DNA from: Candidatus Njordarchaeota archaeon
Lineage (GTDB): Archaea > Asgardarchaeota > Njordarchaeia > Njordarchaeales > Njordarchaeaceae
Direction: 5' to 3'
Length of the DNA stretch: 34,301 bases
Assembly: GCA_029856055.1 (NCBI GenBank)
Contig: JAHQWF010000002.1
Location: 1 to 34,301, forward strand
Shown: in pieces, positions 2,796 through 30,228 of the stretch
Layout: each line of letters opens with the position of its first letter
How positions within the stretch are numbered: the first letter of the stretch is position 1
The notes under the pieces: model-generated
Told to the model about the DNA's origin: nothing
Databases searched by the model: none
What the model saw: only the letters and a program-made list of their open reading frames with translations
Translations under genes and position numbers: made by a program

Positions 2796-2801
2796 TTATT
2801 A

Positions 2802-3050: not shown

Positions 3051-3076
3051 AAAGATAAAGTTTATTAACGGTTAAA

Positions 3077-3087: not shown

Positions 3088-3109
3088 CTGGCGACTTTTA
3101 ACCCATCTA

Positions 3110-4390: not shown

Positions 4391-4401
4391 TTAATCTCAT
4401 T

Positions 4402-5718: not shown

Positions 5719-5837
5719 ATTTTTGAGTTTTTTAATTCATATGGTATGAGTAAAAGTCAAGATATCGTTGTAAAATATATTTAAATTTTAATCAATCTGT
5801 TATAATAAATAGATAATGATTGATGAGATTGATTGTT

Positions 5838-6134
5838 ATGAAGGTAACAATAAAATTCTACGCTGTATTACGAGAGATTGTTGGTAAAAAAGAGGTCATA
5901 GTTGAATTAGATGATAATGATGCAAAAATTATAGATGTGCTTGAAGCAGCTAAAAAAGATATCGGCGAGCAAACGTTCAAGAAAATAATAGAATTTTATA
6001 ATAGAGAGAAAGGACCCAGATTAGTAATCTTATTAAATGGAAGAAACATAATACATCTTAAAGGGCTTGAAACTGAAGTAAAAGACGGAGACAAAATAGA
6101 TATATTCCCTCCAGCAGGAGGAGGAAAAAAATAA
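5838..6134 (+). CDS. MoaD/ThiS-like ubiquitin-fold protein with a short tail after the diglycine
   Basis: MKVTIKFYAVLREIVGKKE.. is a typical MoaD N-terminus. The ORF track begins at the TTG at 5820, but the ATG at 5838 is more plausible. The C-terminus is ..DIFPPAGGGKK-stop. Confidence 0.75.
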   Translation: MKVTIKFYAVLREIVGKKEVIVELDDNDAKIIDVLEAAKKDIGEQTFKKIIEFYNREKGPRLVILLNGRNIIHLKGLETEVKDGDKIDIFPPAGGGKK

Positions 6135-6143
6135 AGAAAAAGA

Positions 6144-7997
6144 TTAAACCTCAATACCTAATTCTTTCAACTTCTCTTTAGTTGGAACTCCGTTCTCCCA
6201 GCCTCTCAACCTATAATACTCTTCAAGCATCTTCTTAAATTCCTCCGGCTTAACCACCTCTCCTTTTGATGGGCCATCTGGTAATGGTTCATAAAGTAAT
6301 CTCTTTGGTAACGTGTCATCTTTAGCATCGAAACCATATTTAGACATTATTAATCTTTCTAAGTTGTATATTCTCTCACCAATTGTCATAATTTCGTCTT
6401 GTGTTAGATCCCAACCAGTTATGCTAGCAAGCATATCTGCATAAGCATCCGCGCCCAATGCGAATGTAACGAACAAACAGTTAACCGTAGAGTTCACCAC
6501 ACACGTGAAATCTTGGAATATCTTAGCCCACTTAGCTTTACCCTCGTAGGATAATCTATCAATTTGCTCTGGTATACCTAAGACCTCTGGAGAGACAGTA
6601 TAACCTGTTACGTGACAACCTCCTCTATTCGCTGTAGCGTAGTCCAAACCTATACCTTTGATTCCTCTTGGATCATAAGCTGGCATATCTAGTCCTTTAA
6701 CGCTCATTGATAGATCTGGAGCCCCATACATCTCAGCTAATCTTTTTGATCCTAAAGCTAGATACTTACCGAATCCTGACTTATAGGCTGTCCTCCATAT
6801 AGCTTCTACCAGTACTGCGTCGTTACCAAACCTTAGATCTAATCCTTGCAAGTCCTCTTTAGGAATTAATCTTCTCTCATATAACTCCATAGCTGTCGCT
6901 ATTGTTGCACCCATTGAAATTGTATCTATACCAAATTCATCACAATAATGATTAGCCTTTATTATTGCCTCAAGATTATGTACACCAGTATCTTGCCCGA
7001 GCGCCCAAATCGACTCATACTCTGGTCCCTCTGTGTATAATATTTGATATGGCCCACCTTCAACTCTTGATACTCTTCCACATCCTATTGCACAGCCCCA
7101 ACATGGCCTTCTATCGATTAAATACTTTTGTTCTAGTGTTTCTCCACTGATTTTTTCTGCGTCGGGGTGATAAGCTCCCTGCCAGTTCTTGTAAGGCAAT
7201 GATCCTATTCCATTAATAATATTAACGAGAATTGCTGTTCCATATTTTGGCAGTCCTTCTCCTGTAACACTATTTTCCTTAATTACTCTGAGATATTTCG
7301 CTGCTTTCTCTTTAAATTCATCAGGTTTAGCTATTGGAGGTCTCTGAGAACCTCTAACATATATGGCTTTGAGTTTCTTTGAACCCATTACTGCACCTAC
7401 GCCAGTTCTACCAGCAGCTCTATGATCATCATTCATAATATTTGCTATTAGAACCAAGTTTTCTCCAGCTGGTCCAATACATGCTACACTAGCATTATGA
7501 TTACCGTGCCTATCCTTAAGAATTCTCGTTGTATCAAATACATTCTTGCCCCATAAGTCCGAAGCATCATGAATCGTTACTTCTCCATCAATTATGCTGA
7601 TGTAAACTGGTGTATCTGATTTACCTCTTATAACTATCATGTCATAACCAGCGAACTTTAGATATGGTCCAAATTCCCCACCTGAGTTCGCGCTAGCAAC
7701 ACTGCCTGTTAGTGGTGATTTTAACGCCATCACGTGATATCTTCCGCTGCTTGGGAAAGCTGTTCCCGTCGCTGGACCGGTGGCGAATATTAAGGTATTA
7801 TCTGGTCCTAGAGGATCAATATCTTTTGGAGCTATACCTTTTAATTCAAGTCTCTTTAGATCATTATAAAATATCCAGAGTGCGTATCCTTTTCCTCCTA
7901 GATATTTTCTAGCTATTTTTTCATCTATGGGTGTCACTTTATATGTCTTATCAGAAAGATTTACTTCGAGAATTTTTCCCATGTAACCTCCTACCAT
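6144..7997 (-). CDS. aor: Tungsten-containing aldehyde:ferredoxin oxidoreductase (canonical AOR type)
   Basis: 617 aa with AOR blocks GGKGYALW, GPAGENLV, AAGRTGVGAVMGSKKLKAIYVRG, the CX2CX3C cluster motif RPCWGCAIGCGR, CDEFGIDTIS, NRGGCHVTGY and LLYEPLPDGP. GGAGGT lies before the second ATG at 7982, so the true start may be 7982 (MGKILEVNL). Confidence 0.93.
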   Translation of the reverse strand: MVGGYMGKILEVNLSDKTYKVTPIDEKIARKYLGGKGYALWIFYNDLKRLELKGIAPKDIDPLGPDNTLIFATGPATGTAFPSSGRYHVMALKSPLTGSVASANSGGEFGPYLKFAGYDMIVIRGKSDTPVYISIIDGEVTIHDASDLWGKNVFDTTRILKDRHGNHNASVACIGPAGENLVLIANIMNDDHRAAGRTGVGAVMGSKKLKAIYVRGSQRPPIAKPDEFKEKAAKYLRVIKENSVTGEGLPKYGTAILVNIINGIGSLPYKNWQGAYHPDAEKISGETLEQKYLIDRRPCWGCAIGCGRVSRVEGGPYQILYTEGPEYESIWALGQDTGVHNLEAIIKANHYCDEFGIDTISMGATIATAMELYERRLIPKEDLQGLDLRFGNDAVLVEAIWRTAYKSGFGKYLALGSKRLAEMYGAPDLSMSVKGLDMPAYDPRGIKGIGLDYATANRGGCHVTGYTVSPEVLGIPEQIDRLSYEGKAKWAKIFQDFTCVVNSTVNCLFVTFALGADAYADMLASITGWDLTQDEIMTIGERIYNLERLIMSKYGFDAKDDTLPKRLLYEPLPDGPSKGEVVKPEEFKKMLEEYYRLRGWENGVPTKEKLKELGIEV

Positions 7998-8157
7998 TTT
8001 ATTACACCGTTATTATTAAAAAGGGTTAAAAAAATGTTGTTCATTATATGTCAATGTTATTTTGAATTTAAATTTTTTCCATAAATAGGAGATATTATTT
8101 TAAAAAATTATTATTAAATAGAAAAATAGTCGAGAGTTCTATTTTAAAAATTAAAAA

Positions 8158-9677
8158 TTATAGGTACTCCCATACACTAGCTTCCTTATAACTCCATACT
8201 ATTGACTTAGTAGTTGTTAATTGATCAATACTATAACCGATGCCTTCTCTACCTACTCCTGATTTTTTAACTCCGCCAAATGAGTAATAACCGATTCCGT
8301 GCCTTGGGTAATCATTTATAAGACACTACCAACCTCTAAATATCTGATAGCTTTTCTTACTTTAGCGTCATCATATCCAAATACACTGGCATCTAAGCCG
8401 TACGGTGTTATATTAGCTATTTCTATAGCTTCATCGCTATTTCTTGCTTTTACTATTAGGGTTAGTGGTCCAAATATATCCTCGTTAATTGCTTTAAGAT
8501 CATGAAGAATTTCTTTTTGAGTTTCGATCAATGTCACTTCATGATAGTTCGCTCTTCTATTTCCTCCAACAAGTATTCTTCCACCTTTAGCGACAGCATC
8601 TTTGATTGCATTCTCGATTTTTATCACTGCTTCCTCCGTTATTAATGGCCCTAGGTCATTTGATTTGTCTCTCGTGTCTCCAAGCTTATATTTCTTTATC
8701 TCTTTTATTAACTTTTCTTTGAATTCATCATAAACTGTTTCTTCAACAGCAATAATTCTTATTGCATCGCATCTCTGTCCTGAAAAACTAACTACTCCTT
8801 TCGCTATTCTCTTCGCTGCTAATTCAATATCTGCATCCGAGAATACTATTGCAGGATCTTTCCCACTTAACTCCATGTGATACGTCTTTATTCCACCTAA
8901 TTCTATTATTTTCTGCCCAACTTCAGTACTCCCAGTGAAGGTTACCGCACTAACCTTTGAGCTTCTAACAATTAAACTAGCATCTCTTCCTGGTACAGGT
9001 AGGACTGCGAATGTTTTTTGGGAAATCCAACCTCTTCTAAAACTTTAGCAAGCATGATAGCTGCTAGAGGAGTTAAAGTTGATGGCTTTAATATGACAGC
9101 ATTTCCTGCTAACATAGCAGGTATTATCTTTGTTGCAGATGTGAATAAGGGATAATTAAATGGAGAAATAGCTAAAACGACACCGAGCGGCTCCTTTTTT
9201 ACGACAGCTTCTGTTTCGAAAGTTTCATGACTCCAGTCTCCAGGAATATATTCACCCATTATCCTTCTGGCATCTAAAACAACTTTTTCTAACCTTTCAA
9301 TAGTAGCTTTAACCTCGCCTTCAGCATTCTTATAGGGTTTCCCAGCATCAAGAATTAATGCTTCTATAAACTCATCTTTATAATCTCTAATTATTTCAGC
9401 AGCTTTCATGAAATACTCTACTCTTTTCTCTCCCGGTAGATTCCTTATCTTCCGTCAAAAGAGACTCTATCAATTGTATCGTTTATTTCATTACTTGATA
9501 ACTTGTGAACACGAGCTATTATATCCCCATTAATAGGGCTGAAATCATTTATTGTTTCACTAGATTTTGACCAAGAACCAGCCAAATAAGCTTTAAACAC
9601 TGGAATACCATCAGAATCGATATCAAAAATGCCCCTAAAAATTCCTTATCTAGAATTTCAACTAATTCGCTATTCAT
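8158..9677 (-). pseudogene. NAD(P)-dependent aldehyde dehydrogenase (GAPN-like) pseudogene with at least four frameshifts
   Basis: My translation recovers a complete ALDH of about 506 aa, but only by switching frame near 9640-9650, 9440-9460, 9012-9022 (an A6/T6 run) and 8313-8320. The segments read MNSELVEILDK / GIFDIDSDGIPVFKAYLAGSWSKSSETINDFSPINGDIIARVHKLS.. / RKIRNLPGEKRVEYFMKAAEII..FNYPL.. / TFAVLPVPGRDASLIV..VTFTGSTEVGQKIIELGG..ELSGKDPAIVF..FSGQRCDAIR.. / [26 protein letters not shown]..stop. Confidence 0.85.
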
Positions 9678-13278: not shown

Positions 13279-13498
13279 GTTACTGGACCTCCATACGTTC
13301 TGGTTAGAAATAATTTGTCCTATATTTTTAAGTTTATTTCACTAGCAACTTTACGGAACATACACCTCCTTATCCAGTAGTTAATTTCTCCTATGTTTCT
13401 AAGAATATTTTTCTTTTTACTTAGATAAAATATTAAAATATATACATTTTGCTTTGAAGAATATTAAAATAAGTAATATTTGGCCAGAGGTGTTTAAA

Positions 13499-14392
13499 AT
13501 GTTTAAAGGAGTTATTGTACCTATGATAACGCCTTTTAATAACGATTTCTCAATAGATTTTGATGGATTAAAATGGTTAACGAAATATCTCGTTGATAAT
13601 GGAGTTAATGGACTGTTCCCATACTCTACAACGGGCGAATTTGTTCACTTGAAGCCCGAAGAAGGAGTAGAAATAGTTCAAACTGTTTTAGATAGTGCTA
13701 GAAATAATGTTAAAATAATTCCTGGAATAAGTGCAAATACCACTCTAGATTGCATTGAGTTGGGTAAAAAGATGGAGGATCTTGGTGTAGATGGTGTTAT
13801 CGCTACTCCACCATTTTTCTTTAAACTTAATGAAAAACAGCTTTTTGAGCATTTTTCTTTAATTGCTCAGAAATTATCTTTACCCATAATTGTGTACAAT
13901 ATTCCTTCTTTAACTGGCAATCATATTCCCGTAAGTGTATATGAGAAACTTGCTAAGGAGTATAGCAATATATCTGGTGCCAAAGTTACTTATGATAGTG
14001 CATCATATTTACATGACCTTATATTAACGATGAAATCTATTAGAAAAGACTTCTCAATACTCACGGGTTTAGATAACATGTTTCTTTACACATTAATAAT
14101 GGGTGGTGATGGAGGGATAATGGCTTGTGCGAACTTTGCTCCCCAAATACATGTTGAGCTATATAAAGCATTCCTATCGAGAAATTATGATGAGGCCTTT
14201 GAACTACATCGTAAACTATCGAAGCTTGTAAAGGTTTATTCTATTGCTTCTTCTTTCCCATCAGCAATAAAAACTGTACACAAGATTCTAGGTAACCCGA
14301 TCAAACCAGTTTCAAGACCACCAATAACTACAGAACCTACTGAAGTAGAGTCAAAAATTAAGAAACTTTTACTGGATTTAAAATTAATTTAA
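13499..14392 (+). CDS. DHDPS/N-acetylneuraminate lyase family class I aldolase (KD(P)G-aldolase-like)
   Basis: MFKGVIVPMITPF..DFDGLKWLTKYLVDNGVNGLFPYSTTGEFVHLKPEE, YNIPSLTG and the candidate Schiff-base lysine in SGAKVTYDS. GAGGTG lies 7 nt upstream of the ATG at 13499; the ORF track begins at an upstream TTG at 13454. Confidence 0.8.
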   Translation: MFKGVIVPMITPFNNDFSIDFDGLKWLTKYLVDNGVNGLFPYSTTGEFVHLKPEEGVEIVQTVLDSARNNVKIIPGISANTTLDCIELGKKMEDLGVDGVIATPPFFFKLNEKQLFEHFSLIAQKLSLPIIVYNIPSLTGNHIPVSVYEKLAKEYSNISGAKVTYDSASYLHDLILTMKSIRKDFSILTGLDNMFLYTLIMGGDGGIMACANFAPQIHVELYKAFLSRNYDEAFELHRKLSKLVKVYSIASSFPSAIKTVHKILGNPIKPVSRPPITTEPTEVESKIKKLLLDLKLI

Positions 14393-16272: not shown

Positions 16273-17397
16273 TCAAAGAGGAAGCTTAACCCATTCTTTC
16301 TTTTCAGCGGATATATACGCAGCTTCAAGGATCTCTTGTGCTTTCAGAGCATCATAGAAATTAGGTTTTGCATCTCGCTTCTCTAGAATAGCTTTAAAGA
16401 ATTCGTGCATCAGTGGAACGAACAGATATCCCCAGCCTGAAACTGATTTGCTTGGAGGCCAAAGCGCGTTCTTCCACGGCTTTAGTACTATTCTTTTTAA
16501 TCCTGGAATATCATCGTCGGTTAGGTAAATATAGATCTCAAACGGATTATCCAGATAGAATCTAATCATTCCTTTTGATCCGTGGATCTCGACTCTATCT
16601 AACTCCTGAAAACCAAGTCCAAACCTTGTGGCTTCAATTGATCCAATAGCTTTATTCTTAAATGCGACAAGCATGATTGTTGCGTCATCTACATCCACTA
16701 TGTCTCTGCCACCATTCTTAGTCTTACGTTCCTTAATAAAGATTCTCGATACAGCAGATACCTCAGATACATCATCAACAAGATACCTTGCTAAATCTAT
16801 TAAATGTATCCCTATGTCAGCTAAAGCTCCACCCCCAGCTATCTCTTTCTTCATCCTCCATTCAATAGGTAAATCTGGATTAACGAATCTAGAGTGAGCC
16901 ACCACGGCTCTATAGTGATATAATTCACCTAGTTTACCAGACTCAATTAGCTCTTTAGCAAATATAACTGATGGCATAAACCTCATTACTAATGCTGTCG
17001 AATTAACTATTCTTGATTCCTTCACTTTCTCGTACATTCTTCTCGCTTGCTCGTAATTCAATCCTAATGGCTTTTCACATAGGACATGGATGCCTTTCTC
17101 AGCAGCCTCAATAACTGGTTCCTCGTGAAATGCATTAGCTGTTGTTACACTTATAGCGTTCGTGGTACCATCATTAATGATTTTTCTCCAGTCATCTGTC
17201 ACGTATCTGAATCCGAATCTATGTTTCAATCTTTCAGCTTTTGATACTGTTCTGTTATACACCCCATTCAGCTCGATTATTTCTGGATCTAAATCATCAA
17301 AAGAAAATGTGACTGCTTTTGCGGCCCATGCATGAACAAAACCGATACCTCCAGCTCCTATTAAACTGAAGTAGATTTTTGATGATGAATTAACCAA
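16273..17397 (-). CDS. Gfo/Idh/MocA-family NAD(P)-dependent oxidoreductase
   Basis: 374 aa with the N-terminal Rossmann motif LIGAGGIGFVHA, the family motif LCEKPLG, and a C-terminal alpha/beta domain of typical length. Confidence 0.85.
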   Translation of the reverse strand: MVNSSSKIYFSLIGAGGIGFVHAWAAKAVTFSFDDLDPEIIELNGVYNRTVSKAERLKHRFGFRYVTDDWRKIINDGTTNAISVTTANAFHEEPVIEAAEKGIHVLCEKPLGLNYEQARRMYEKVKESRIVNSTALVMRFMPSVIFAKELIESGKLGELYHYRAVVAHSRFVNPDLPIEWRMKKEIAGGGALADIGIHLIDLARYLVDDVSEVSAVSRIFIKERKTKNGGRDIVDVDDATIMLVAFKNKAIGSIEATRFGLGFQELDRVEIHGSKGMIRFYLDNPFEIYIYLTDDDIPGLKRIVLKPWKNALWPPSKSVSGWGYLFVPLMHEFFKAILEKRDAKPNFYDALKAQEILEAAYISAEKKEWVKLPL

Positions 17398-17411
17398 TTA
17401 TTTCCCTCCTA

Positions 17412-17915
17412 TTATAGGAGCTTCTTATCCTTTAGAAGCTTCATTACATCCTGTGGTCTTGATGGGAAGTCCGGTAATTGCTGATACCACACCTTAACTC
17501 CCATCTCAACCATCTTCTTAATTGCCTCAACATCTTCTGGCGAGACGGAAGCGGTCTTAGCTATCTGCGTTCTTCCCTGCCTAAAAGCCATTTGGCCTAG
17601 ATTAACTGAATCTACTTTAGCTCCTTCTTCGATTAATTTTAATGCGTCTACGCAATTCGCAACTAGAATTAGAACTCTCTTGTTATCGTTTTTACCTTGT
17701 TCTTCCTGAATTTTCTTTATTGCTTCTTCAATTGTGTAGACCTCGACGTTTGATCCTGGTGGCGCCAGTGATTTCTGAAGTTGTTTAATCACTGGATTTT
17801 TCGCGACGGCATCATTAGCAACCCAAATCTCATTAGCATTAGCAAGCTTTACCCAAGCAGCAGTGACTTGGCCGTGAACGTATCTATCATCCACTCTCAA
17901 AAGAGCTATCTTCAT
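17412..17915 (-). CDS. PTS mannose/sorbose-family EIIB component
   Basis: 167 aa. MKIALLRVDDRYVHGQVTAAW matches the family signature R-[IV]-D-D-R-x-[IV]-H-G-Q-V, including the phosphorylatable His. Confidence 0.85.
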   Translation of the reverse strand: MKIALLRVDDRYVHGQVTAAWVKLANANEIWVANDAVAKNPVIKQLQKSLAPPGSNVEVYTIEEAIKKIQEEQGKNDNKRVLILVANCVDALKLIEEGAKVDSVNLGQMAFRQGRTQIAKTASVSPEDVEAIKKMVEMGVKVWYQQLPDFPSRPQDVMKLLKDKKLL

Positions 17916-18090
17916 TTAATTCACCGAGCAGTAATTAGCACTCTTTAATCAAATTGTTAAAAAGATATAAAATATTATTCATAAATTTGATCAATGAGAA
18001 TTATTAATGAATCTAATTTAATTTAATTAATCTTATAAACATTATATTTCATGACGATTAATAATCTCTTATATCTATGAGGTAACTCAA

Positions 18091-18987
18091 ATGATTCCTA
18101 GACTCGTTGATGCTCCATGGAGCAAAATAAGGGGATTTAATAAAGATGAATTAATAGAGTCGATTAAACTTAGTGAGGGTAGGACTATAGCCGCGGAAGT
18201 TGTTGTAACGGCTCCCCCGCTCATTGATAAGATCTCTAATGTAGAGTTAGCTGCTGGCTTCGGGGCAGATATAATTATTCTTAATTTCTATGATGTTAAA
18301 ACTAAATTCATTGCAAATATCCCAGAGCAAGTAAAAAGCATTAGTGATCTTCGAGATTTCTTGGGGAGAATTATTGGTGTTAATTTAGAACCGGTTAGAA
18401 AGGATATAGCTGAAAAACTTGGTTATAGTCCTGGAAGACTAGCGACTGTGGAGAATGCTCAAATAGCTGTTGAAGATGGTGCTGATATCTTGATTATTAC
18501 AGCTAATCCGATGGCTCAAGTCTCATTAAAAGACATATTGATGGCTGTTAAGGAAATTAGGGAAAATATGGGAGATAAGGTAATAATTATGGCTGGTAAA
18601 ATGCATTTGGCAGGAGTTTATGCGGAGAGGCTGGACAGAGAAATGATACAGCAGTTTGCTAAGAATGGTGCTGATGGAATAATTATGCCTGCTCCGGGAA
18701 CAATACCTGGAGCTACATTAGAATTCTGCAAAGAAATCGTTGAGAAAGCTCACGAGAATAATCTTATTGTAACATCCTGTATAGGTACATCGCAAGAGGG
18801 TGCTGATGAAGAGACCATCAGAAGGATCGCATTTCTAGGAAAAATGAGTGGTGCCGACATTCATCATATCGGTGATTCGGGTTATAGTACTAGTGTAGCT
18901 CTTCCAGAGAACATAATGGCTTATTCTATAGTTATAAAGGGGAAGAGACATACTTTTAGGAGAATTGCTCAATCTATACTTAGATGA
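18091..18987 (+). CDS. TIM-barrel-like (aldolase/epimerase-type) protein of unknown function within the PTS island
   Basis: 298 aa with alternating beta-alpha pattern and repeated G-A-D strand ends (GFGADIIILNF, DGADILIITAN, NGADGIIMPAPG, SGADIHHIGDSG). No precise family was recognised. Confidence 0.5.
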   Translation: MIPRLVDAPWSKIRGFNKDELIESIKLSEGRTIAAEVVVTAPPLIDKISNVELAAGFGADIIILNFYDVKTKFIANIPEQVKSISDLRDFLGRIIGVNLEPVRKDIAEKLGYSPGRLATVENAQIAVEDGADILIITANPMAQVSLKDILMAVKEIRENMGDKVIIMAGKMHLAGVYAERLDREMIQQFAKNGADGIIMPAPGTIPGATLEFCKEIVEKAHENNLIVTSCIGTSQEGADEETIRRIAFLGKMSGADIHHIGDSGYSTSVALPENIMAYSIVIKGKRHTFRRIAQSILR

Positions 18988-19181
18988 AATATCAAAATTT
19001 TAATGAAAATGTTTAATATTTTTTAAATTTGCTACGCTATAAAGATGTTAAAATATTAAAATCGATTAGTAAGTAATACTAATATTAATACCTTTTTTCA
19101 AATTTAGAAAAATTTTAAAAACTATATATACGAGAATATGTATGAAATATGTAAATGCATTCTAAAAATATTATTTAAAAG

Positions 19182-21017
19182 GTGTATATGCGCATGCAAA
19201 CAAATGAAACCAAGAGCAAATTTCTAACCATAGAGAAACACACAATATTTTTATACGCAGCTGTAATTACTATCGCAGTGTTTCTGCACTTCAAAGGCGT
19301 CCATGCACAGGCAGCAACGACTATATCTCCTGCTCAAGCACTAGCTTTAACAATATTCGCATTTATATGTGGTCTAGACTACATCTGGGTAACGCCAACA
19401 GGTGTATGGAGACCAACGATTGCTGGGACCGTCTCAGGTATAATTCTAGGCAATCCATTACTAGGATTGATAGCTGGATCATTAATTGAGTTCTCGTTCC
19501 TAGGATTATTTACTATAGGTGGTGGAACAGTACCTGAAGCGGCATCGGGAACAATTGTAGCTACAACTCTAGGTGTTATTATTGGCACAGCTCCTGCACC
19601 TGAGGCAGCAGTAGCTCTAGTACCAATAGCAATACCAGTAGCTGCACTAACGATGAATATAGAGATCTTGGTTAGAGCGGGAGATGCGGTATTTACTCAC
19701 TGGGCAGATGGTGAAATAGCTAAAGGTAATTACAAAATAGTAGGATTAATAAACGTAATTGGAGCGATACCTTGGGCTTTGAGCAGAGCGATACCAGTTG
19801 GTGTTTTCGCGTTCCTAGGAGCTACTCCTGAGGTTGCTACAGCTATTAAAAATGCTATTACTTCACCAGCTATTGCCCCATTCTGGAGTGCAATGAGTAT
19901 TGCTGGATGGTGGATGCCTGCTTTAGGTGTTGCATTGTTGCTTAGAATGTTCTATAGAACTGAGTACTTGCCATACTTCCTATGGGGTTTCGCTTTAGTC
20001 GCTTACTTTAACTTATCATTACTGGCAGTCGCTATCTTCTCCACAATCTTAGTTGGTATGATTTATGTAGCTAGGTGGATCATTCAATTCGGTGAATTTA
20101 AGGTCGAGGGAGCTGTTGAGGAAGGACCGAGGGTATTAACTAGAGGTGACCTTGTTAAAGCATTCTGGTTATCATGGTTCATTCAAAGCTCATGGAACTA
20201 CGAGAGAATGATGGGTACTGGTTTCGCTCACGGTATGTTTCCTATTGAGCAGAAATTGAGGAAGACTGATGAAGAATTAAAAGAATGGTTGACAATGCAC
20301 TCCGAGTTCTATAATACAGAGCCACACCTACACAACATTATCCTTGGAATGGTAATCGCCATGGAGGAGAGAGGCGCAGATATAGAGACAATAAGAGCAA
20401 TTAAAACAGCTTTAATGGGACCGTTCGCCGGATTAGGAGACTCTCTAATGTGGTTCACGCTACTACCTATCGCTTTCGCTATAGGAGCTAGCTTAGGTGC
20501 ACAAGGAAACTTCTTAGGTCCAATAATTGCGCTTCTAATATGGATACCTATCTCTTGGGCAGTTAAATTCTATTCTCTAATATATGGATATAAATACGGA
20601 GATCAGTTGGCAAATGTATTGAGAGGAGATGTATTAAAATTCTTTAGAGATGCCATAGCTGCCTTTGCGGTCGCTATGATGGGTGGCATTGGTGCTTCCT
20701 ATGTTACCCCACCAATCTTCGTTCAGGTTACCTTATCTATATATGGAGTAAGCATACAATCAATAATGGATACGATCATTCCAAGATTATTACCATTATT
20801 AATAGTGCTTTATGCCTATTGGATAGTTAAAAGAGGCGTCCCACTGAGTCTAGCAGTGACCTCATTGTTCCTAACTGGTCTCGGTTTGAGCTTATTGAAC
20901 ATCATTGGTCCTCCTAAAGCAGCTTTCCAGTGGCCATCTCCTGAATTTGCAGCTGCTGGTATTATCTTGATCATAATCTCGTTGATCATAGATTTCTTTG
21001 GTGCTCGCGAGAAATAG
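19182..21017 (+). CDS. PTS mannose-family fused EIIC-EIID permease
   Basis: 611 aa. The N-terminal half is EIIC-like (ICGLDY..WRPTIAGTVSGIILGNPLLGLIAGSLIEFSFLG..GG.VPEAASG). The C-terminal half is EIID-like (LTRGDLVKAFWLSWFIQSSWNYERMMGTGFAHGMFP..HSEFYNTEPHL..AMEERG..IKTALMGPFAGLGDSLMW). Confidence 0.88.
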   Translation: MYMRMQTNETKSKFLTIEKHTIFLYAAVITIAVFLHFKGVHAQAATTISPAQALALTIFAFICGLDYIWVTPTGVWRPTIAGTVSGIILGNPLLGLIAGSLIEFSFLGLFTIGGGTVPEAASGTIVATTLGVIIGTAPAPEAAVALVPIAIPVAALTMNIEILVRAGDAVFTHWADGEIAKGNYKIVGLINVIGAIPWALSRAIPVGVFAFLGATPEVATAIKNAITSPAIAPFWSAMSIAGWWMPALGVALLLRMFYRTEYLPYFLWGFALVAYFNLSLLAVAIFSTILVGMIYVARWIIQFGEFKVEGAVEEGPRVLTRGDLVKAFWLSWFIQSSWNYERMMGTGFAHGMFPIEQKLRKTDEELKEWLTMHSEFYNTEPHLHNIILGMVIAMEERGADIETIRAIKTALMGPFAGLGDSLMWFTLLPIAFAIGASLGAQGNFLGPIIALLIWIPISWAVKFYSLIYGYKYGDQLANVLRGDVLKFFRDAIAAFAVAMMGGIGASYVTPPIFVQVTLSIYGVSIQSIMDTIIPRLLPLLIVLYAYWIVKRGVPLSLAVTSLFLTGLGLSLLNIIGPPKAAFQWPSPEFAAAGIILIIISLIIDFFGAREK

Positions 21018-21080
21018 GCATTCTTTAATTTTTTATACATTTTTTATTCTTTTTTCTAAAAAATAAATTGGTTATGTGCA

Positions 21081-21515
21081 ATGATTGGTATAGTAGTTGT
21101 TTCTCATCTCCATCTAGCTGAGGCCCTATTAGAAACTACTAGGATGATTTATGGCAAACCAGAAAGAGTTGTAGCGGTCCCTTTACTTGAAGGTGAGGGT
21201 CTGGAAGAGTTAAAAGACAAGGTGATAAGAGCAATAGATGAGGTAAATGATGGTGATGGGGTTCTAGTTCTGGTAGATCTCTTTGGTGGTACGACAATGA
21301 ATGTTGCAGCATTAATTGCCGCTGAACGAGGAGATATAGAAATAATCTCCGGAGTTAATTTGCCGATGATGCTACAAGTATTGTTCGAGAGAGAAGATAC
21401 AAATAATCTAAGGGAACTAGCTGAGAAAGCCCTTCAAGCTGGCAAAGATGGAGTAATGGATGTTAGAGAGAAAATAGTTGAGAAACTTAAGAAAGCGCGT
21501 GAGGGGAATGTATAG
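21081..21515 (+). CDS. PTS mannose-family EIIA component
   Basis: 144 aa. MIGIVVVSHLHLAEALLETTRMIYG fits the EIIA-Man N-terminus with the active-site His, followed by VLVLVDLFGGT. Confidence 0.8.
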   Translation: MIGIVVVSHLHLAEALLETTRMIYGKPERVVAVPLLEGEGLEELKDKVIRAIDEVNDGDGVLVLVDLFGGTTMNVAALIAAERGDIEIISGVNLPMMLQVLFEREDTNNLRELAEKALQAGKDGVMDVREKIVEKLKKAREGNV

Positions 21516-22224
21516 GCTTATTGCTACAGATGTAGATGGAGTAGTTAAACCTTATTATGACCCAGTACCAAGCGAGTTGAGTGACCTTCTTGCAAAAATA
21601 TCAGAGAAAATAAAGATTGCTTTCTTATCTGGAAGACAAATATCTTGGCTTGATGGATTAGTTAATGGTATGGGGATTCGGCTCGAGAGAACAATTTTGA
21701 TCGGGGAAGAAGGAGCAGTAATATGGTTTCCTGATGAGTATAAATTAGTATACTCACTAAATGAAGAATATTTACAACGTTTCATAAGAGCGAGAGATAG
21801 CATTAAAAGAAAAATTAGTGATTTATTTGGCGATCAAGTGTTTATTCCTGCTACTCATGTGATTTTAACTATAGCTGCTGGTAATAAATTTCATGAAGCT
21901 GATAAATTGATTAAAGAAATTATAAAAACAGAAAATTACAATGACTTAATTAACTTAACTTATCATAAGATGCATAACGTGATTCAAGTATTTCCGAGGG
22001 GAATCGATAAGTATGTTGCTCTAAGAATAGTTCTAGGGAAATTAAATTTAGATGAGAAAGATGTTATAGCTCTTGGTGATGGACTAAATGACATACCTAT
22101 TTTAAGAAAAGCAGGATTTTCAATAGCTATCGGAAGTAACGAAGAAGTAATTAAGTCATCTAAAGTCCATTTCGATGACGGATTAACAGCATTTAAATAC
22201 ATAGTTGAAAATCTACTTCTATAA
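21508..22224 (+). CDS. HAD-superfamily (Cof/IIB-type) sugar-phosphate phosphatase
   Basis: Motif I is IATDVDGVV, motif II is FLSGRQ and motif IV is GDGLNDIPILRKAG. The ATG at 21508 follows GAGGGG and overlaps the EIIA stop by 8 nt; the ORF track begins at 21478. Confidence 0.8.
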   Translation: MYRLIATDVDGVVKPYYDPVPSELSDLLAKISEKIKIAFLSGRQISWLDGLVNGMGIRLERTILIGEEGAVIWFPDEYKLVYSLNEEYLQRFIRARDSIKRKISDLFGDQVFIPATHVILTIAAGNKFHEADKLIKEIIKTENYNDLINLTYHKMHNVIQVFPRGIDKYVALRIVLGKLNLDEKDVIALGDGLNDIPILRKAGFSIAIGSNEEVIKSSKVHFDDGLTAFKYIVENLLL

Positions 22225-22825: not shown

Positions 22826-23935
22826 TTGATATTTTTGAACGCGGAAAAATATATTTTACCTGTAATAGGACCTATAAATCTTTCTTACTTAATTCTATAT
22901 TACCAGTCAGTAGAAAATATCTCTGAGTTAAAGAAGAGATTAGAGCACAGGGAAATTGATCCGTCATCTGAGATCCCGAGAATAATTAATAAAGGGATCA
23001 GGAATAATTATTTACAAAAAGGAATTTTCTCCTTCTATCTAGATGACAAAGGGATTATTTGTGTTATGGGCAGAGAATACGTTAATGAAATAAAAGTAAA
23101 TGATTACACAATTTTACTCAGCGATCCTAAACCACTCACACGTGAACTATATTCGCTAGCTTTGAGAAAATTTCTACTTAGTTTCATTTCTTGGAAACTT
23201 GATCAAGACAGGGATTTGAAAATTCGTGTGGGTGATGCTTATTACTTTAAAGAGTCTGTTATTGGGAAGAGTAGAGAAGGCTTGGAATTCATGTTATTAC
23301 ATGGTTTCAGTTTAAGGATTATTTCTCATCTTTCTGGATTCTATATTTATGTTTTAGATAAGTTTCTGCCTAGGATAAAGCCTACTCTGGATAGGATTCT
23401 AAGGATAGATATTTTCAGGGGTACTTATGAGTATTTGAGAGGTGAGTATTATTGGGATGGTTTATTGAAAGAAATGAGCTGTATCACCACTGATGAGTAT
23501 TTTAGGTTTGGTAAACCTTCTTATGCTGGTCGAATTGTGAAAGTTGTTTATAGTGATGTCCCTATTTATCAGGAATTAAGATCATCTATAAAGGATTATT
23601 ATTCTAGAGAGCGTGGAGAAATTAGAAAATTTATTGAGGAGAGGATGCGTGATGATGTCCCCATAGTCCTCACGTACAAAGGGAGGCGGGGAGCCCATTT
23701 ATTATCTTACTTATCTAGTATCCTTTATCTAGCACCCTCAATAATGGAGTTAAGAAGAATAGTGGATGTCTTAGGTTTCAGACAAATAGTGAAGTGGTAT
23801 ATTGATGCGATGAATCCAAATATAGATAGTTACATAGATAGCTTGAACAAATGGGCAAGCAAAATTATGGATATACTTAACCAATTACCTCTCAAACGGA
23901 GAGGCAACATTCTTGAATTAAGTGGGGTGCATTGA
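22826..23935 (+). CDS. Argonaute N-terminal-half protein (N/L1/PAZ-like/L2, APAZ-type partner) encoded separately from MID-PIWI
   Basis: 369 aa with a TTG start. The Ago-like N-terminus (IFLNAEKYILPVIG..) and the segment IKDYYSRERGEIRKFIEERMRDDVPIVLTYKGRRGAHLLSYLSSILYLAPS resemble the PAZ region of archaeal long Argonautes as I recall them. The stop TGA (23933-23935) is one nt from the ATG of the PIWI gene. No TIR, SIR2, Mrr or TM domain was recognised. Confidence 0.6.
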   Translation: MIFLNAEKYILPVIGPINLSYLILYYQSVENISELKKRLEHREIDPSSEIPRIINKGIRNNYLQKGIFSFYLDDKGIICVMGREYVNEIKVNDYTILLSDPKPLTRELYSLALRKFLLSFISWKLDQDRDLKIRVGDAYYFKESVIGKSREGLEFMLLHGFSLRIISHLSGFYIYVLDKFLPRIKPTLDRILRIDIFRGTYEYLRGEYYWDGLLKEMSCITTDEYFRFGKPSYAGRIVKVVYSDVPIYQELRSSIKDYYSRERGEIRKFIEERMRDDVPIVLTYKGRRGAHLLSYLSSILYLAPSIMELRRIVDVLGFRQIVKWYIDAMNPNIDSYIDSLNKWASKIMDILNQLPLKRRGNILELSGVH

Positions 23936-25202
23936 AATGTCACTTAGATTATTCTCTATTAAGAAAGCTAAAACACCTAAAATAGCTTTCGGTGGCGATG
24001 CTGTAAGTGATAGTGTTGTTAACGGTTTAGAGCAATTTGGTCCTTGGGACTTGGGCAAGAGATTATTTAACTCATTACGCTTAATAATTGTCTACCCAGA
24101 GGGACAAGAAAGCATAATGTATGATCTGCTTGAGAATATGATTATCGAGATTTCTCTTTTGAGATTAAGACTGGAGGTTATACTGAAGATCAGTTATAAT
24201 CCTGGGTCGGCAAGTTCTTATGAAGAAACTATTAATAAGATACGGGAGTTCATTAGAAATGAGCCTTTTAGAAAAGACATAGCTATCCTCCAATTAATTC
24301 CAGAAAGGGAGGAAAAACCAGACTCTTTCTATAACTTAATTAAAAGAGAGATCTATTTAGGCTCAGAAACAAATGAGTTATCTGTTCAGGCTCTAATGAT
24401 CCCAAAATGGGTAGAAGCTAGAGATAAGATTGATTACAGTAGAAATTTGTTGCTTTCCATCTATAGTAAAATGGGCGGAATTCCATGGGTATTAAAGAAT
24501 ACGGCTTCACGGCTAATCGAATCAGCCAGCTTTATTGGTTACACTACTATGGAGAAGAAAGATGTACTTTACGTAATATATTCTATCTTTGGATCAAGAG
24601 GTGAATTAATAGTAAACAAGATCTTAAAATACGAGGCAGCGAGCGATGAAGATAAGAAAATGTATTTAGAGAAAGCTTTCAAAGAAATGCTGGAAAATGC
24701 TTATTCAAGCAAGCTTATAGCTTTACATAGGCTTGGTGAAATTAATGAGATTGAGAAAGATATATTATCTAATATTATTAATAATATAAGAGGATATTTA
24801 TTCATAGTTGAATTCCCAATGGATTGGTCTATACCAATTCTTATCAAGTCTAATTATACTCATAGAAATGCAGATCCTGGAACGTGGTTTTATGGTGGAG
24901 TGATAAATAATGTTCCCTACTTCTTTATTAAGCTCAAATCATTTAATAGGAGGCCTAGTATTGTTAGGGAGGCAATTAAATATGGAGTTATCTTGGTGAC
25001 ACCGAGGATACTTGATGAATTCAGTTGGAGCGATATAGCTGACGATATAGCTAATCAGATATATTCACTAAGTAGTTTGCATTGGGGTAATGTAAATGGT
25101 TACTTTGATGTACCAGTAACAATTCATTTCATGAGAAAGATGAGGAACTTTGTAGAGAGAAACATGGTTATACCCGAGTCTAATAGAGCTATATTCATTT
25201 AA
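23922..25202 (+). CDS. ago: Short prokaryotic Argonaute (MID-PIWI), predicted catalytically inactive
   Basis: PIWI hallmark NLLLSIYSKMGGIPWVLKN. The MID 5'-end pocket pattern is FYNLIKREI..SVQALMIPKW (Y-K-Q-K). Catalytic positions read FIGYTT (expected G-x-D-V) and LHRLGE (expected R-D-G). The likely start is the ATG at 23937 (MSLRLF), preceded by GGGGTG; the ORF track starts at the GTG at 23922. Confidence 0.85.
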   Translation: MGCIEMSLRLFSIKKAKTPKIAFGGDAVSDSVVNGLEQFGPWDLGKRLFNSLRLIIVYPEGQESIMYDLLENMIIEISLLRLRLEVILKISYNPGSASSYEETINKIREFIRNEPFRKDIAILQLIPEREEKPDSFYNLIKREIYLGSETNELSVQALMIPKWVEARDKIDYSRNLLLSIYSKMGGIPWVLKNTASRLIESASFIGYTTMEKKDVLYVIYSIFGSRGELIVNKILKYEAASDEDKKMYLEKAFKEMLENAYSSKLIALHRLGEINEIEKDILSNIINNIRGYLFIVEFPMDWSIPILIKSNYTHRNADPGTWFYGGVINNVPYFFIKLKSFNRRPSIVREAIKYGVILVTPRILDEFSWSDIADDIANQIYSLSSLHWGNVNGYFDVPVTIHFMRKMRNFVERNMVIPESNRAIFI

Positions 25203-27319: not shown

Positions 27320-28216
27320 ATGAGATTGAATTCAGATAAGATATTTGAATACATCTGTGTCTCTTTCGGTCTCGGATTATTGATTTTAGTATTACTGATA
27401 TTTTATGAGTTGATAGCTAATTCATTTCTGGTATTTGCGAAATTCGGTATTAATTTCCTTACAACTGCTTATTGGGAACCTGTTAAAGGTATTTATGGAG
27501 CGTCACCATTTATATACGGAACATTCTTTACAGCCACTATAGCACTAGCAATAGCTTATCCCGTTAGTATTGGCATAGCTGTATTTTTATCTGAATTATC
27601 ACCTAGAAAAGCGAGCCAGTTTTTTTCATCTTTAATTGATTTGATAGCTGCAATACCTAGCGTGATAATAGGGTTATGGGGATTATTCATTTTAGCTCCA
27701 ATTATAAGGGATGATGTTCAACCAATACTAAAGCATCTCTCATTTATTCCATTCTTCCAAGGCGAAACTCAAGGGTTAAGCTACCTAAATGCAATCCTAG
27801 TTCTCATTTTCATGATTATACCTATAATGACTTCAATCTTTACAGAGGCCTTAAGAAACGTTCCAAGAGATTTAAAGGAAGCTATGTATGCTCTAGGCGC
27901 CACTAGATATGAAGTTATTAGGCATGTATCTATACCAACTACCCGAACAGCGTTACTAGCTGGTATTGTGCTCGCGTATGGTAGAGCTTTAGGAGAGACC
28001 CTAGCCGTCACGATGGTTATTGGTAATAAACCTAATATCACTATTTCCCTCTTGAATCCCGGGTACACTTTGGCAGCTGTTATAGCTAACGAGTTCTTAG
28101 AGGCTACTGATGCACTGTACGTATCTGCCTTAATAGCTTTAGGCCTGATATTATTCTCAATCTCACTGACAGTTAACTTAATTGGTGCGATTTTGTTGAA
28201 GAGGTTATCCAGATGA
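27320..28216 (+). CDS. pstC: Phosphate ABC transporter permease PstC
   Basis: 298 aa with six hydrophobic segments and the PstC EAA-loop region EALRNVPRDLKEAMYALGATRYEVIRHVSIPTTRTALLAGIVLAYGRALGETLAVTMVIGN. Confidence 0.9.
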   Translation: MRLNSDKIFEYICVSFGLGLLILVLLIFYELIANSFLVFAKFGINFLTTAYWEPVKGIYGASPFIYGTFFTATIALAIAYPVSIGIAVFLSELSPRKASQFFSSLIDLIAAIPSVIIGLWGLFILAPIIRDDVQPILKHLSFIPFFQGETQGLSYLNAILVLIFMIIPIMTSIFTEALRNVPRDLKEAMYALGATRYEVIRHVSIPTTRTALLAGIVLAYGRALGETLAVTMVIGNKPNITISLLNPGYTLAAVIANEFLEATDALYVSALIALGLILFSISLTVNLIGAILLKRLSR

Positions 28217-30228
28217 CTATTGCTATAAGAAAGCTCAAGAATCTTTTATTCACCGTATTTGCTATAATCTCATTTATTGTGATCATAATACCCTTACTTC
28301 ACTTAGTATTCACAATAATAGTAAATGGAATTCAAGCAATAAACCTAGATTTCTTTATATCGCTCCCACCGCCTCCTGGATATCCAGATGGGGGAGTAGC
28401 TAACGCTATTCAAGGAAGCATAATTCTTGTAGGATTAGCTATGTTAATAAGTTTCCCGATAGGGTTTTTCGGAGGAATATACTTAGCAGAATACAGCAGA
28501 GGTAATTTATCCGAGTTAATTAGGACTCTCGTTAACGCTTTATCAGGTATACCTTCCATTGTAGCTGGTATATTCGCGTACACCATAATTGTCATTAAGT
28601 ATGGGTTCTCGGCCATAGCAGGAGCAATAGCCCTAAGTTTGCTCTCAATACCTTATATAGTTAGAACAACAGAAGAGGCTCTAAAAGCCGTTTCTAGAGA
28701 CATAAGAGAGGCTGGATTAGCTCTGGGTATACCAAGATGGAAGGTCACTTTATACTTAGTAGTAGGTGCGGCTAAGCCTAGAATAATAGCTGGAGCATTA
28801 TTAGCTATGGCTAGAATTACTGGCGAGGCAGCACCATTATTATTTACTGCTTTTGGAAGTAGGTATTTTACAAAATCAATATTTGAGCCAGCTGACGCTT
28901 TACCTTTACTGATTTATAGATTCGCTTTCTCACCATATTCTGAGTGGCATAGATTAGCTTGGGGTGCAGCACTAATATTAATTTTGGTGGTACTTTCCAT
29001 TAATCTAGGAGTCAAACTATACATGGGTGGAGGACCCAAGATTAAGATTAGTAAGAAAAAACTAGGAGCGATTACCCTCGTAGTATTGGTTTCAGGCGCT
29101 GCTTGGGCGATATATCCTAAGCCAGAAGTAATAAAGCTTAATGGTGCTGGAGCGACATTCCCGTACCCGCTTATATCTCTCTGGGCAAAAGAATTTCACG
29201 AAGAATACCCCAATATAACTGTTGAATACCAAGCTATAGGTAGTGGTGGTGGAATCAGAGCTATACTTGATCAAACGGTTGATTTCGCGGGTAGCGATGC
29301 GCCCTTAAACCCAAATGAATACGCTAACGCTTCACGCATAGGAACAATAATGCATATTCCCGAAGCACTTGGTGGCGTTGTTATAGCCTACAATCTTCCC
29401 GGATTAAATGGCAGGTTGAAACTGACTGGTGATATTATAGCTGATATTTATCTTGGGAACATATCTAAGTGGAGTGATCCTAGGATAAAGAACATTAATC
29501 CAGAACTAAATCTGCCTGATAGAGATATTATTGTTGTTAAGAGATCTGATGGAAGCGGAACAACGTATATTTTTACTGATTACTTATCTAACGTGAGTGA
29601 AACTTGGAGAGATTACATAGGAAAAACTAAGATATTTTCATTCCCTGATAAGATTGGAAATAGAGGTTTAAGCGCTCCTGGGAACCCTGGAGTGGCGCAG
29701 ATGATTCTTCAGAATCCTTACTCCCTCGGTTATATCGAGTTAGCTTATGCTCATCAACAAAATATGACTACTGCACTAATAAGAAATAAAGAGGGCTACT
29801 TCGTGGAAGGAAACTTAACTACGATCAGTGCTGCTGCAACAGGTGCAGCTCAAGCCTTACCATTACCTTGGGAATCTTGGTCCAATATAACAATTGTTAA
29901 TGCTCCTGGAAAACTAGCTTACCCAATAAGTAGCTTTACATACATATTAGTGTATAGGGAACAACACGACTTCAAAAAATATCTAGCGTTAAAGAAATGG
30001 CTAACATGGATCTTGACAAAGGGACAAGAATATGCGCCTGAACTACTTTATCCAAAATTACCTCCAGAAATAGTTGAATTAGGATTACAAGCTGTAAACT
30101 CATTAGTATATATAGGTGCATCTCAGAAACAAGAAACCTATTACTCTAATTCTCTTCATGGAATTAAAATTGCTGTTTATTCGAGCTTTAGATATGATTT
30201 AAGGCAAATTGAAATGTTTTTTTATTGA
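28213..30228 (+). CDS. pstA: PstA permease fused in frame to the PstS phosphate-binding protein
   Basis: 671-aa single ORF with an ATGA overlap with pstC. Residues 1 to about 270 are PstA-like (EEALKAVSRDIREAGLALGIPRWKVTLYLVV..ARITGEAAPLLFTA). From the in-frame Met at 29023 there is a signal-anchor (MGGGPKIKISKKKLGAITLVVLVSGAAWA) and then PstS blocks (GAGATFPYPL, YQAIGSGGGI, VDFAGSDAPL, RSDGSGTTYIFT). Confidence 0.85.
   Translation: MTIAIRKLKNLLFTVFAIISFIVIIIPLLHLVFTIIVNGIQAINLDFFISLPPPPGYPDGGVANAIQGSIILVGLAMLISFPIGFFGGIYLAEYSRGNLSELIRTLVNALSGIPSIVAGIFAYTIIVIKYGFSAIAGAIALSLLSIPYIVRTTEEALKAVSRDIREAGLALGIPRWKVTLYLVVGAAKPRIIAGALLAMARITGEAAPLLFTAFGSRYFTKSIFEPADALPLLIYRFAFSPYSEWHRLAWGAALILILVVLSINLGVKLYMGGGPKIKISKKKLGAITLVVLVSGAAWAIYPKPEVIKLNGAGATFPYPLISLWAKEFHEEYPNITVEYQAIGSGGGIRAILDQTVDFAGSDAPLNPNEYANASRIGTIMHIPEALGGVVIAYNLPGLNGRLKLTGDIIADIYLGNISKWSDPRIKNINPELNLPDRDIIVVKRSDGSGTTYIFTDYLSNVSETWRDYIGKTKIFSFPDKIGNRGLSAPGNPGVAQMILQNPYSLGYIELAYAHQQNMTTALIRNKEGYFVEGNLTTISAAATGAAQALPLPWESWSNITIVNAPGKLAYPISSFTYILVYREQHDFKKYLALKKWLTWILTKGQEYAPELLYPKLPPEIVELGLQAVNSLVYIGASQKQETYYSNSLHGIKIAVYSSFRYDLRQIEMFFY

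Follow-up and report, generated by a model that had tools for sequence, protein, structure and literature searches.

Mannose-family phosphotransferase genes with a fused EIIC-EIID permease and a DUF7916 protein in a probably Asgard-affiliated archaeon

A six-gene cluster and its predicted pathway

Can a bacterial-type phosphotransferase system (PTS) work in an archaeon if Enzyme I (EI) and HPr are not encoded beside its transporter genes, and what might become of the sugar phosphate that it delivers? The question is raised by a cluster of six genes on contig JAHQWF010000002.1 of the assembly GCA_029856055.1. This contig (C2) was analyzed in its entire length of 34.3 kb and is called the window in the following. 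It belongs to an assembly of 1.55 Mb in 147 contigs (78% completeness, 3.35% contamination). The cluster is probably, with a likelihood of roughly 0.7, a working phosphoenolpyruvate (PEP)-dependent PTS module of the mannose family that carries its own downstream enzymes and was horizontally acquired by an Asgard-affiliated, Njordarchaeia-like archaeon.

An earlier inspection of the letters and open reading frames (ORFs), made without database searches and referred to here as the sequence-only reading, had listed the six genes and judged the relay histidines to be conserved. Both statements were confirmed. All ORFs were recovered (Table 1) and their Pfam and NCBIfam families are unambiguous. 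The cluster encodes the EIIA-Man and EIIB-sorbose domains with their histidine as well as the IIC and IID membrane domains of a mannose/fructose/sorbose-family PTS (TC 4.A.6). The EIIA protein exceeded the cut-off of the NCBIfam model TIGR00824 (EIIA-man; 104 bits vs. 98.35), while EIIB reached 135 bits with TIGR00854, below the cut-off of 163.6. In EIIA the motif VVSHLHLAE (residues 6-14) contains His9, whose column is conserved in the sequence IGTHGWAAE of the Escherichia coli IIA-Man structures 1pdo_A and 1vsq_A. In EIIB, His14 resides within DDRYVHGQV, part of the motif RVDDRYVHGQV (residues 7-17), and aligns with the histidine of DDRLIHGQV in E. coli IIB-Man (1vsq_C) and in the sorbose IIB 1nrz_A (1nrz: E 3e-29). 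We take the aligned histidines to be the phosphorylated residues. In a six-frame ORF search, the only IIB-sorb and the only IIA-Man domain found in the window genome were those of the cluster.

Table 1. Genes and divergent intergenic region of the cluster (positions in the window)
Feature	Position	Strand	Remarks
Gfo/Idh/MocA-family NAD(P)-dependent sugar oxidoreductase, 374 aa	16273..17397	-	second gene of the leftward IIB-Gfo pair
Mannose/sorbose-family EIIB, 167 aa	17412..17915	-	PF03830 PTSIIB_sorb, 157.7 bits (cut-off 27)
AT-rich divergent intergenic region, 175 bp	17916..18090	.	between the IIB-Gfo pair and DUF7916; read from the sequence
DUF7916 (PF25509) TIM-barrel protein, 298 aa	18091..18987	+	Pfam 368 bits
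Fused EIIC-EIID membrane permease	19182..21017	+	PF03609 and PF03613 within one ORF
Mannose-family EIIA, 144 aa	21081..21515	+	PF03610 EIIA-man, 103 bits
HAD-IIB (Cof-type) phosphatase	21478..22224	+	248 aa from TTG 21478, 238 aa from ATG 21508

We infer from the sequences that the module is active, on which substrate it acts, in which order its enzymes work and how the promoters are arranged. The phosphoryl group would pass from PEP via EI and HPr to His9 of EIIA and His14 of EIIB, and then to a sugar bound by the permease, whose EIIC and EIID form a single chain. The resulting sugar phosphate would be processed by three co-travelling enzymes, the DUF7916 protein, the Gfo/Idh/MocA oxidoreductase and the HAD-IIB phosphatase. 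The DUF7916 barrel would most likely be of the sugar-phosphate epimerase/isomerase type, distantly related to NanE, and the phosphatase would strip the phosphate from an intermediate or from the end product. The intergenic region between the two divergent gene groups is presumed to be a promoter region serving both directions.

The oxidoreductase exhibited the N-terminal (73 bits) and C-terminal (99-102 bits) domains of its family (PF01408, PF02894, PF22725). Its top NCBIfam model, levoglucosan dehydrogenase NF052479, gave 263.5 bits, below the equivalog cut-off of 650 bits, and its closest solved structure was 6a3f (E 1.5e-64). The protein is thus classified by its domains as a member of the Gfo/Idh/MocA superfamily only, and not as a levoglucosan dehydrogenase. 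The phosphatase matched Hydrolase_3 (76 bits) and the HAD-SF-IIB model TIGR01484 (73.7 bits vs. cut-off 41.8) and contains the catalytic DxD within TDVDGV as well as a GDGLND motif, which assigns it to HAD-IIB. With either of its possible starts its ORF overlaps the stop codon of the EIIA gene.

The DUF7916 protein had been described in the sequence-only reading as an unassigned triose-phosphate isomerase (TIM) barrel. The barrel fold was borne out by an AlphaFold model with eight beta-alpha units (predicted local distance difference test score 92, predicted template modelling score 0.92), but the protein is not unassigned. It matches the Pfam family DUF7916 over nearly its whole length (residues 8-298 cover positions 3-296 of the 296 profile positions; 368 bits vs. 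cut-off 27), and in bacteria the family occurs as an enzyme of PTS operons. Invariant residues are E36, N65, N98, E100, K170, H172, S234-Q235-E236, D256, H258, H259 and D262; by our own reading of the secondary structure of the model they appear to lie at the C-terminal strand ends.

A database search yielded 4,705 homologues of the DUF7916 protein, among which proteins of Tissierellia, Clostridia and Oceanotoga are 46-50% identical to the archaeal one. The family was detected above the cut-off in 18 of 121 sampled genomes of the order Tissierellales and in none of 14 control genomes. Of 13 bacterial loci with a recognized DUF7916 ORF, 12 carry a PTS EIIC gene no more than three genes away, and at eight of them it is the immediate neighbor. 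All five EIICB proteins tested from such loci passed the N-acetylglucosamine (GlcNAc)-specific model TIGR01998 (598-602 bits vs. cut-off 553). Three loci read EIICB-NagA-NagB-DUF7916, while at four loci a PRD antiterminator gene precedes EIICB-DUF7916, with EIIA-Glc next in three of them. Since DUF7916 resides in bacterial PTS operons, often together with NagA and NagB, we take it for an enzyme of sugar phosphates, perhaps those of amino sugars. The genomic contexts suggest that it probably acts on the phosphorylated uptake product, a sugar phosphate of the N-acetylhexosamine type. We found no literature on DUF7916.

Two bacterial loci (L153 and L154) differ in that DUF7916 is accompanied by peptidase-family genes instead of NagA/NagB (M81/MlrC and CutC in one, M20 in the other). 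The substrates of some family members may be sugars conjugated with amino acids or peptides.

As to the substrate, the top NCBIfam models of the window IIA, IIC and IID are all of the galactosamine/N-acetylgalactosamine (Aga) type, each below its cut-off. A hexosamine or N-acetylhexosamine would be the leading candidate class, though a doubtful one.

Permease fusion, spread of the module and host

The permease ORF comprises 611 aa from GTG 19182; the database copy has 609 aa and begins with ATG 19188. The EII-Sor domain (IIC, PF03609) covers residues 52-290 (159.7 bits) and the EIID-AGA domain (PF03613) residues 319-574 (260 bits). In an alignment with the E. coli Man-PTS structure 6k1h, ManY corresponds to residues 49-294 and ManZ to residues 315-566. 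Separate IIC and IID polypeptides, the usual but not strictly defining arrangement in TC 4.A.6, are thus replaced here by a single ORF. The fusion (IICD) is real, since the IIC-IID junction was uninterrupted in 20 of 21 related metagenome contigs, and contigs of two public DNA runs, X1 and X2, covered the junction (about 20070-20136) without indels. The two runs were not counted as independent because they are nearly equal in size and both contain the same adapter-flanked 209-bp piece of high depth.

This piece corresponds to positions 16762-16970 inside the Gfo gene and forms a separate short contig in X1 and X2 with 30-60 times the surrounding depth. It is bordered by a sequence resembling a transposase adapter, CTGTCTCTTATACACATCT, and is probably a library artefact. 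At position 17880 the window has G and both runs have A; the difference falls on the third base of codon 12 (Tyr) of EIIB and reads as a synonymous change.

The only metagenome contig with an interrupted junction (L193, about 50% identity) carries IIC (259 codons) and IID (269 codons) in frame, where a lone stop codon with an ATG after it divides the two (L193:5995-7581). Either this is how the genes were arranged before they fused, or a nonsense mutation has struck a gene that was already fused. The example shows that two genes are only a very short step away from being one. The DUF7916 protein of this contig is identical to the database protein P0109.

The sequence-only reading had regarded the fusion as unusual. 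A single ORF is indeed not the usual arrangement, but it is not peculiar to this genome. A database search restricted to lengths of 336-1070 aa gave 61 fused proteins. Outside the clade of the window they occur in metagenome-assembled genomes (MAGs) of Njordarchaeia, in Thermofilum pendens, Thermofilum sp. and Infirmifilum (52-58% identity) and, at 25-36% identity, in bacteria of several phyla (Amycolatopsis, Lentzea, Thermoanaerobacterium, Cryosericum). A genome scan with the IICD alignment gave 591 loci; among the best 80 of these, all bacterial, eight had a fused ORF and the others separate IIC and IID genes. IICD proteins of the window clade possess an extra stretch of about 50 aa at the N-terminus and one of about 40 aa at the C-terminus, each with a hydrophobic segment. 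Both stretches are conserved among the orthologues, and both segments are missing from the Thermofilum and bacterial fused forms.

Within the genus, six genomes (G001-G006, G005 being the closest relative of the window genome, G000) were compared with the window, and a genome of another family of the same phylum (G040) was included. Fused orthologues were found in G005 (88% identity), G001 (81%) and G006 (64%). In the search match of the G006 copy one stop was read through, yet an ORF of 577 aa exists. The copy of G003 is partial and lies at a contig edge, and no IICD was seen in G002 and G004. IICD, IIB, Gfo and DUF7916 have been kept together in G001, G005 and G006, and in G001 and G005 the IIA-HAD pair lies close by. 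The HAD orthologues adjoin EIIA there and in metagenome loci. G004 has retained Gfo, DUF7916 and a HAD-like gene on a short contig.

The same six genes recur in metagenome contigs whose IICD proteins are 90-99.6% identical to those of T. pendens, Thermofilum sp. or Infirmifilum. In L182-L184, Gfo, IIB, IIA and DUF7916 lie on one strand and IICD on the opposite strand, followed by HAD. In L189 and L190, which have identical DUF7916 copies, EI adjoins Gfo as well. Gfo was present at 17 and DUF7916 at 14 of the 21 metagenome loci; the remaining contigs are short or cut. The sequence-only reading had called the presence of a phosphatase curious. The gene is there, but since the whole six-gene module including HAD and Gfo is conserved in the Thermofilaceae-type contigs, the phosphatase is a fixed part of the pathway rather than a local oddity.

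A tree of the IID domain (130 rows, quick search, unrooted, with support from the Shimodaira-Hasegawa-like approximate likelihood ratio test, SH-aLRT, only) united the Njord-like and Thermofilaceae proteins in a single clade (SH-aLRT 100). This clade is nested within a group of 108 rows (support 100) that is otherwise mainly bacterial. Because the root of the tree was not inferred, a bacterial origin rests on this nesting and on the rarity of the system in archaea. Such rarity, stated before for archaea, applies to the phylum of the host, in which EIID was detected in 7 of 400 genomes and 3 of 85 genera. A horizontal acquisition of the cluster fits these sequence relationships.

The window genome contains a second, distant fused IICD (535-541 aa, 28% identity) on contig C89, and G001 carries four fused copies. 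In the IID tree, domains of the C89 type make up a clade of their own, close to the fused proteins of bacteria. At C89:11493-16351 (L171) the fused IICD directly follows a 663-aa fusion of a SIS domain with NagA (339 bits, cut-off 225.65), and a tyrosine recombinase/integrase gene is next. Neither IIA nor IIB adjoins this IICD. The C89 locus resembles one for an amino-sugar PTS and may form part of an integrated element.

The host was called apparently archaeal in the sequence-only reading, and this was upheld. A search with an archaeal small subunit (SSU) rRNA model gave no SSU rRNA in the assembly, so that the taxonomy rests on elongation factor 2 (EF-2) and on named homologues. EF-2 has relatives at 70-90% identity, one of which (70%) is labelled as a Crenarchaeota/Thermoproteota archaeon. 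Its named matches at 54-58% are almost all from Asgard lineages (Baldr-, Odin-, Heimdall- and Thorarchaeota). Among named homologues, those closest to IICD (63-67%) and DUF7916 (66-68%) carry the label Candidatus Njordarchaeia. The sequence similarities thus point to an archaeal, Asgard-affiliated host that is probably Njordarchaeia-like. In composition the cluster falls within the range of the genome: its GC content is 0.378 compared to 0.354, and its tetranucleotide distance stays under the 90th percentile of 179 chunks of 6 kb.

Phosphoryl donors and weighing of the explanations

Whole-genome family searches revealed neither EI nor HPr within the window, as noted before. The sequence-only reading had left the phosphoryl donor open, which no longer applies to its full extent. 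HPr is encoded on contig C68 (G000:C68:2547-2783, minus strand) by a 93-aa ORF with the motif GLHARPA (PF00381, 106 bits), flanked by a xylulokinase-like FGGY kinase gene on one side and a type III RuBisCO gene (608 bits, over the cut-off) on the other.

Galactitol-type IIB-like and IIA genes lie upstream, beside HPr, at the start of this contig (C68:245-4122, L170). A third PTS branch may run off C68.

Several results weigh against the proposed working module. The family searches did not find EI in the 78%-complete assembly, and the sole PEP-utilizer match of the genome was a pyruvate phosphate dikinase-like ORF of 889 aa on contig C106. IIB, IIC and IID reached no NCBIfam equivalog cut-off, so that an assignment of the substrate by homology fails. 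For the DUF7916 barrel, Foldseek returned generic barrels only (template modelling scores 0.41-0.55), VIA-align gave a flat list with Z-scores from 17.6 down to 14, and the window protein had no match to the NanE family PF04131 at E <= 1 and cannot be counted as a member of it. The bacterial DUF7916 loci lack Gfo and HAD genes; the roles proposed for these two enzymes in the archaeal module thus stand without support from outside. The public sequencing runs listed for the sequence included none of RNA. Finally, a free DUF7916 tree kept the two archaeal groups apart.

The points on NanE and on the DUF7916 tree can be qualified. Nineteen of 47 DUF7916 relatives showed a weak PF04131 match (best E 2.4e-06). 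In a profile search of the PDB the top hits were chance matches to polyubiquitin repeats, and the NanE structure 4utu appeared at E 0.005 over about 58 residues only. The ESM Atlas gave no usable match. By these profile matches a relationship between DUF7916 and NanE would be distant at best. A tree constrained to unite the archaeal groups had a higher likelihood (by 6.6 log units; approximately unbiased test, p-AU 0.757), so that inheritance of DUF7916 together with the transporter is not rejected.

As for EI, PEP-utilisers_N gave zero matches in the window genome, and tblastn with the EI of G005 retrieved only the C106 protein (25% identity). EI exceeded the curated cut-off in all six genomes of the same genus and in G040. 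The EI gene of G005 and an aldehyde:ferredoxin oxidoreductase gene form a divergent pair, and the orthologue of the latter (84.6% identity) is the last gene on contig C53 of the window genome. The G005 block beside EI aligns with C53:6161-7584 at 76% nucleotide identity. C53 ends about 22 nt further on, at 7606, while the EI reading frame of G005 opens about 20 nt past the aligned block. Since C53 breaks at the syntenic site, the missing EI gene is best explained by an assembly break, and EI would be expected immediately beyond the end of this contig. With HPr on C68 and EI in all six congeners, the question of the donors appears largely resolved at the level of gene content.

Among the other explanations, the one that fares best differs from our proposal only in the order of the steps. 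The PTS would merely energize the uptake, the HAD phosphatase would dephosphorylate the sugar at once, and the free sugar would enter a non-phosphorylative Gfo/Idh/MocA dehydrogenase route. The maltose system of Enterococcus faecalis is a precedent for a PTS followed by a dedicated phosphatase. Such an order is favored by the phosphatase, which is translationally coupled to EIIA and conserved with the module, and by the nearest characterized Gfo relatives, which use unphosphorylated sugars (levoglucosan dehydrogenase 6a3f, scyllo-inositol/L-glucose dehydrogenase 5ya8). The window also holds an aldolase-like gene of the dihydrodipicolinate synthase (DHDPS) family and two aldehyde:ferredoxin oxidoreductase genes. 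However, the DHDPS-like gene lacks synteny among the relatives examined, and DUF7916, the enzyme most tightly linked to PTS across bacteria, would be left without a role. We therefore regard this variant as unlikely.

The genes could also be a decaying or orphaned relic, whose relay cannot be charged without EI and which is heading for loss, as the failure to find EI in the assembly and the two congeners without IICD might indicate. All six ORFs, however, are intact with conserved catalytic motifs, intact orthologues at 64-88% identity exist across the genus, and EI occurs in every congener, while C53 breaks at the syntenic spot of an assembly that is only 78% complete. These points render a relic quite improbable.

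Still less probable is a phosphorelay that serves regulation or an intracellular substrate instead of sugar transport. DhaM phosphorylates an intracellular substrate for dihydroxyacetone kinase, and regulatory PTS branches are known in bacteria. The EIIA protein indeed matched a DhaM domain, though weakly (22 bits vs. cut-off 98), but the cluster contains a complete and conserved membrane permease with IIC and IID domains, has neither a DhaK nor a DhaL partner and is accompanied by enzymes of a catabolic type. That a bacterial contaminant contig was misbinned into an archaeal MAG, as the 3.35% estimated contamination and the many bacterial relatives of the PTS and DUF7916 proteins might suggest, is very hard to reconcile with the tetranucleotide profile of C2, which is nearer to that of the genome than the profile of the median contig (0.0059 vs. 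0.0090), with its tungsten-type aldehyde:ferredoxin oxidoreductases and split Argonaute, with the recurrence of the cluster in four further genomes of the genus, where the neighboring genes on the contig differ, and with the archaeal identity of the closest named homologues. None of these alternatives accounts for the conservation data as well as the proposed module does.

Further features of the window lie outside the cluster. The DHDPS-family gene (13454-14392) was considered as a pathway member and dropped because of the lacking synteny. The region 321-8009 contains the two aldehyde:ferredoxin oxidoreductase genes (912-2792 and 6147-8009), one of them preceded by a gene for a 4Fe-4S protein; between them lie genes for two radical-SAM proteins, of which one has a SPASM domain, and for a small ThiS-like protein. 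The 242-aa ORF at 8319-9044 covers only positions 188-420 of the 461 positions of the aldehyde dehydrogenase profile and may be a truncated or frameshifted gene. Two neighboring ORFs of 369 and 426 aa are situated at 22826-25202, the second of which gave a weak Piwi match (23.9 bits, below the cut-off). At 28177-30225 a single ORF of 683 aa combines an ATP-binding cassette (ABC) transporter permease domain (BPD_transp_1) with a periplasmic-binding-protein domain (PBP_like_2), a fusion of permease and binding protein.

Significance and comparison with known systems

The mannose-family PTS is well known, and the fused IICD is known from Thermofilum and from annotations of Njordarchaeia MAGs. Three points seem not to have been published before: a full PTS module in an Asgard-affiliated lineage, the occurrence of the same six genes in Thermofilaceae and in the lineage of the window, and the linkage of DUF7916 to PTS. 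The relevant statement of a 2021 survey (PMC7997004) is that no PTS protein was present in the Asgard genomes examined there. Apart from it we found no mention of PTS in Asgard archaea or Njordarchaeia in the literature covered, which did not extend to the supplementary tables of the Asgard papers. The first description of Njordarchaeota (bioRxiv 10.1101/2021.04.02.438162) inferred a lifestyle on peptides and amino acids with limited carbon metabolism.

Tentatively, and at slightly less than even odds, we propose all parts jointly: the six genes would form a mobile, PEP-driven pathway for (amino) sugars shared by Thermofilaceae and Njordarchaeia-like Asgard archaea, the PTS would be functional in the latter, and DUF7916 would be dedicated to PTS-delivered sugar phosphates. 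If this is true, Asgard archaea possess a working PTS of the bacterial type, contrary to its published absence from the surveyed Asgard genomes, and the range of such systems would extend to an Asgard-affiliated lineage. DUF7916, with more than 4,700 homologues, would be an uncharacterized enzyme family that serves two unrelated superfamilies of PTS transporters. A testable lead for this family is that it would use what PTS uptake yields, the sugar being probably of the N-acetylhexosamine type.

The E. coli ManXYZ system (6k1h/7dyr, 1pdo, 1vsq) shares with the window the four functional domains and the conserved histidine columns. In ManXYZ, however, IIA and IIB are fused (ManX) and IIC and IID are separate, whereas the window has separate IIA and IIB and a fused IIC-IID. 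The window proteins score below all mannose equivalog and subfamily cut-offs except that of EIIA-man, and the accompanying enzymes differ from those of the ManXYZ locus. The E. coli Aga PTS provides the top NCBIfam models, with scores under the curated cut-offs for AgaF (IIA; 109 vs. 130 bits), the galactosamine IID (171 vs. 400 bits) and AgaW (IIC; 112 vs. 300 bits). The NagA/SIS pair beside the second IICD of the window genome is another Aga-like trait. Unlike the Aga locus, the window cluster contains neither AgaA nor AgaS nor a tagatose-bisphosphate aldolase.

The PTS operons of Tissierellales and Carnobacterium resemble the window in harboring DUF7916 (46-50% identical). Their EIIC proteins, however, belong to the glucose/GlcNAc or cellobiose superfamily and not to the mannose family, there is no Gfo/HAD partner, and PRD antiterminators or GntR-type regulators control them. 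Among archaea, the fructose PTS of Haloferax volcanii (Pickl et al. 2012, as cited in PMC7997004 and PMC12525153) is described in the citing passages as a functional system of the bacterial type that is taken to be derived from bacteria. It differs from the window in its fructose-family EIIC, its haloarchaeal host and its downstream enzymes.

The closest counterpart is the module of T. pendens and Infirmifilum. A PTS in T. pendens is mentioned in PMC2678158; a characterization of the module was not found in the literature, with the 2008 genome paper outside our coverage. The IIC-IID proteins are fused as in the window (52-58% identity; P0018), the Thermofilaceae-type contigs bear the same six genes (Gfo, IIB, IIA, DUF7916, IICD and HAD), and in the IID tree the Thermofilum/Infirmifilum sequences are the sister group of the window clade (SH-aLRT 100). 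In contrast, the hosts belong to a different archaeal phylum, the order and orientation of the genes differ, and the window IICD is extended relative to that of Thermofilum by the N-terminal (about 50 aa) and C-terminal (about 40 aa) stretches with their hydrophobic segments. The long-noted PTS of Thermofilum would thus belong to a six-gene module that has been conserved and has passed between distant lineages of archaea, and T. pendens, as a cultivable carrier, would permit direct tests of the module.

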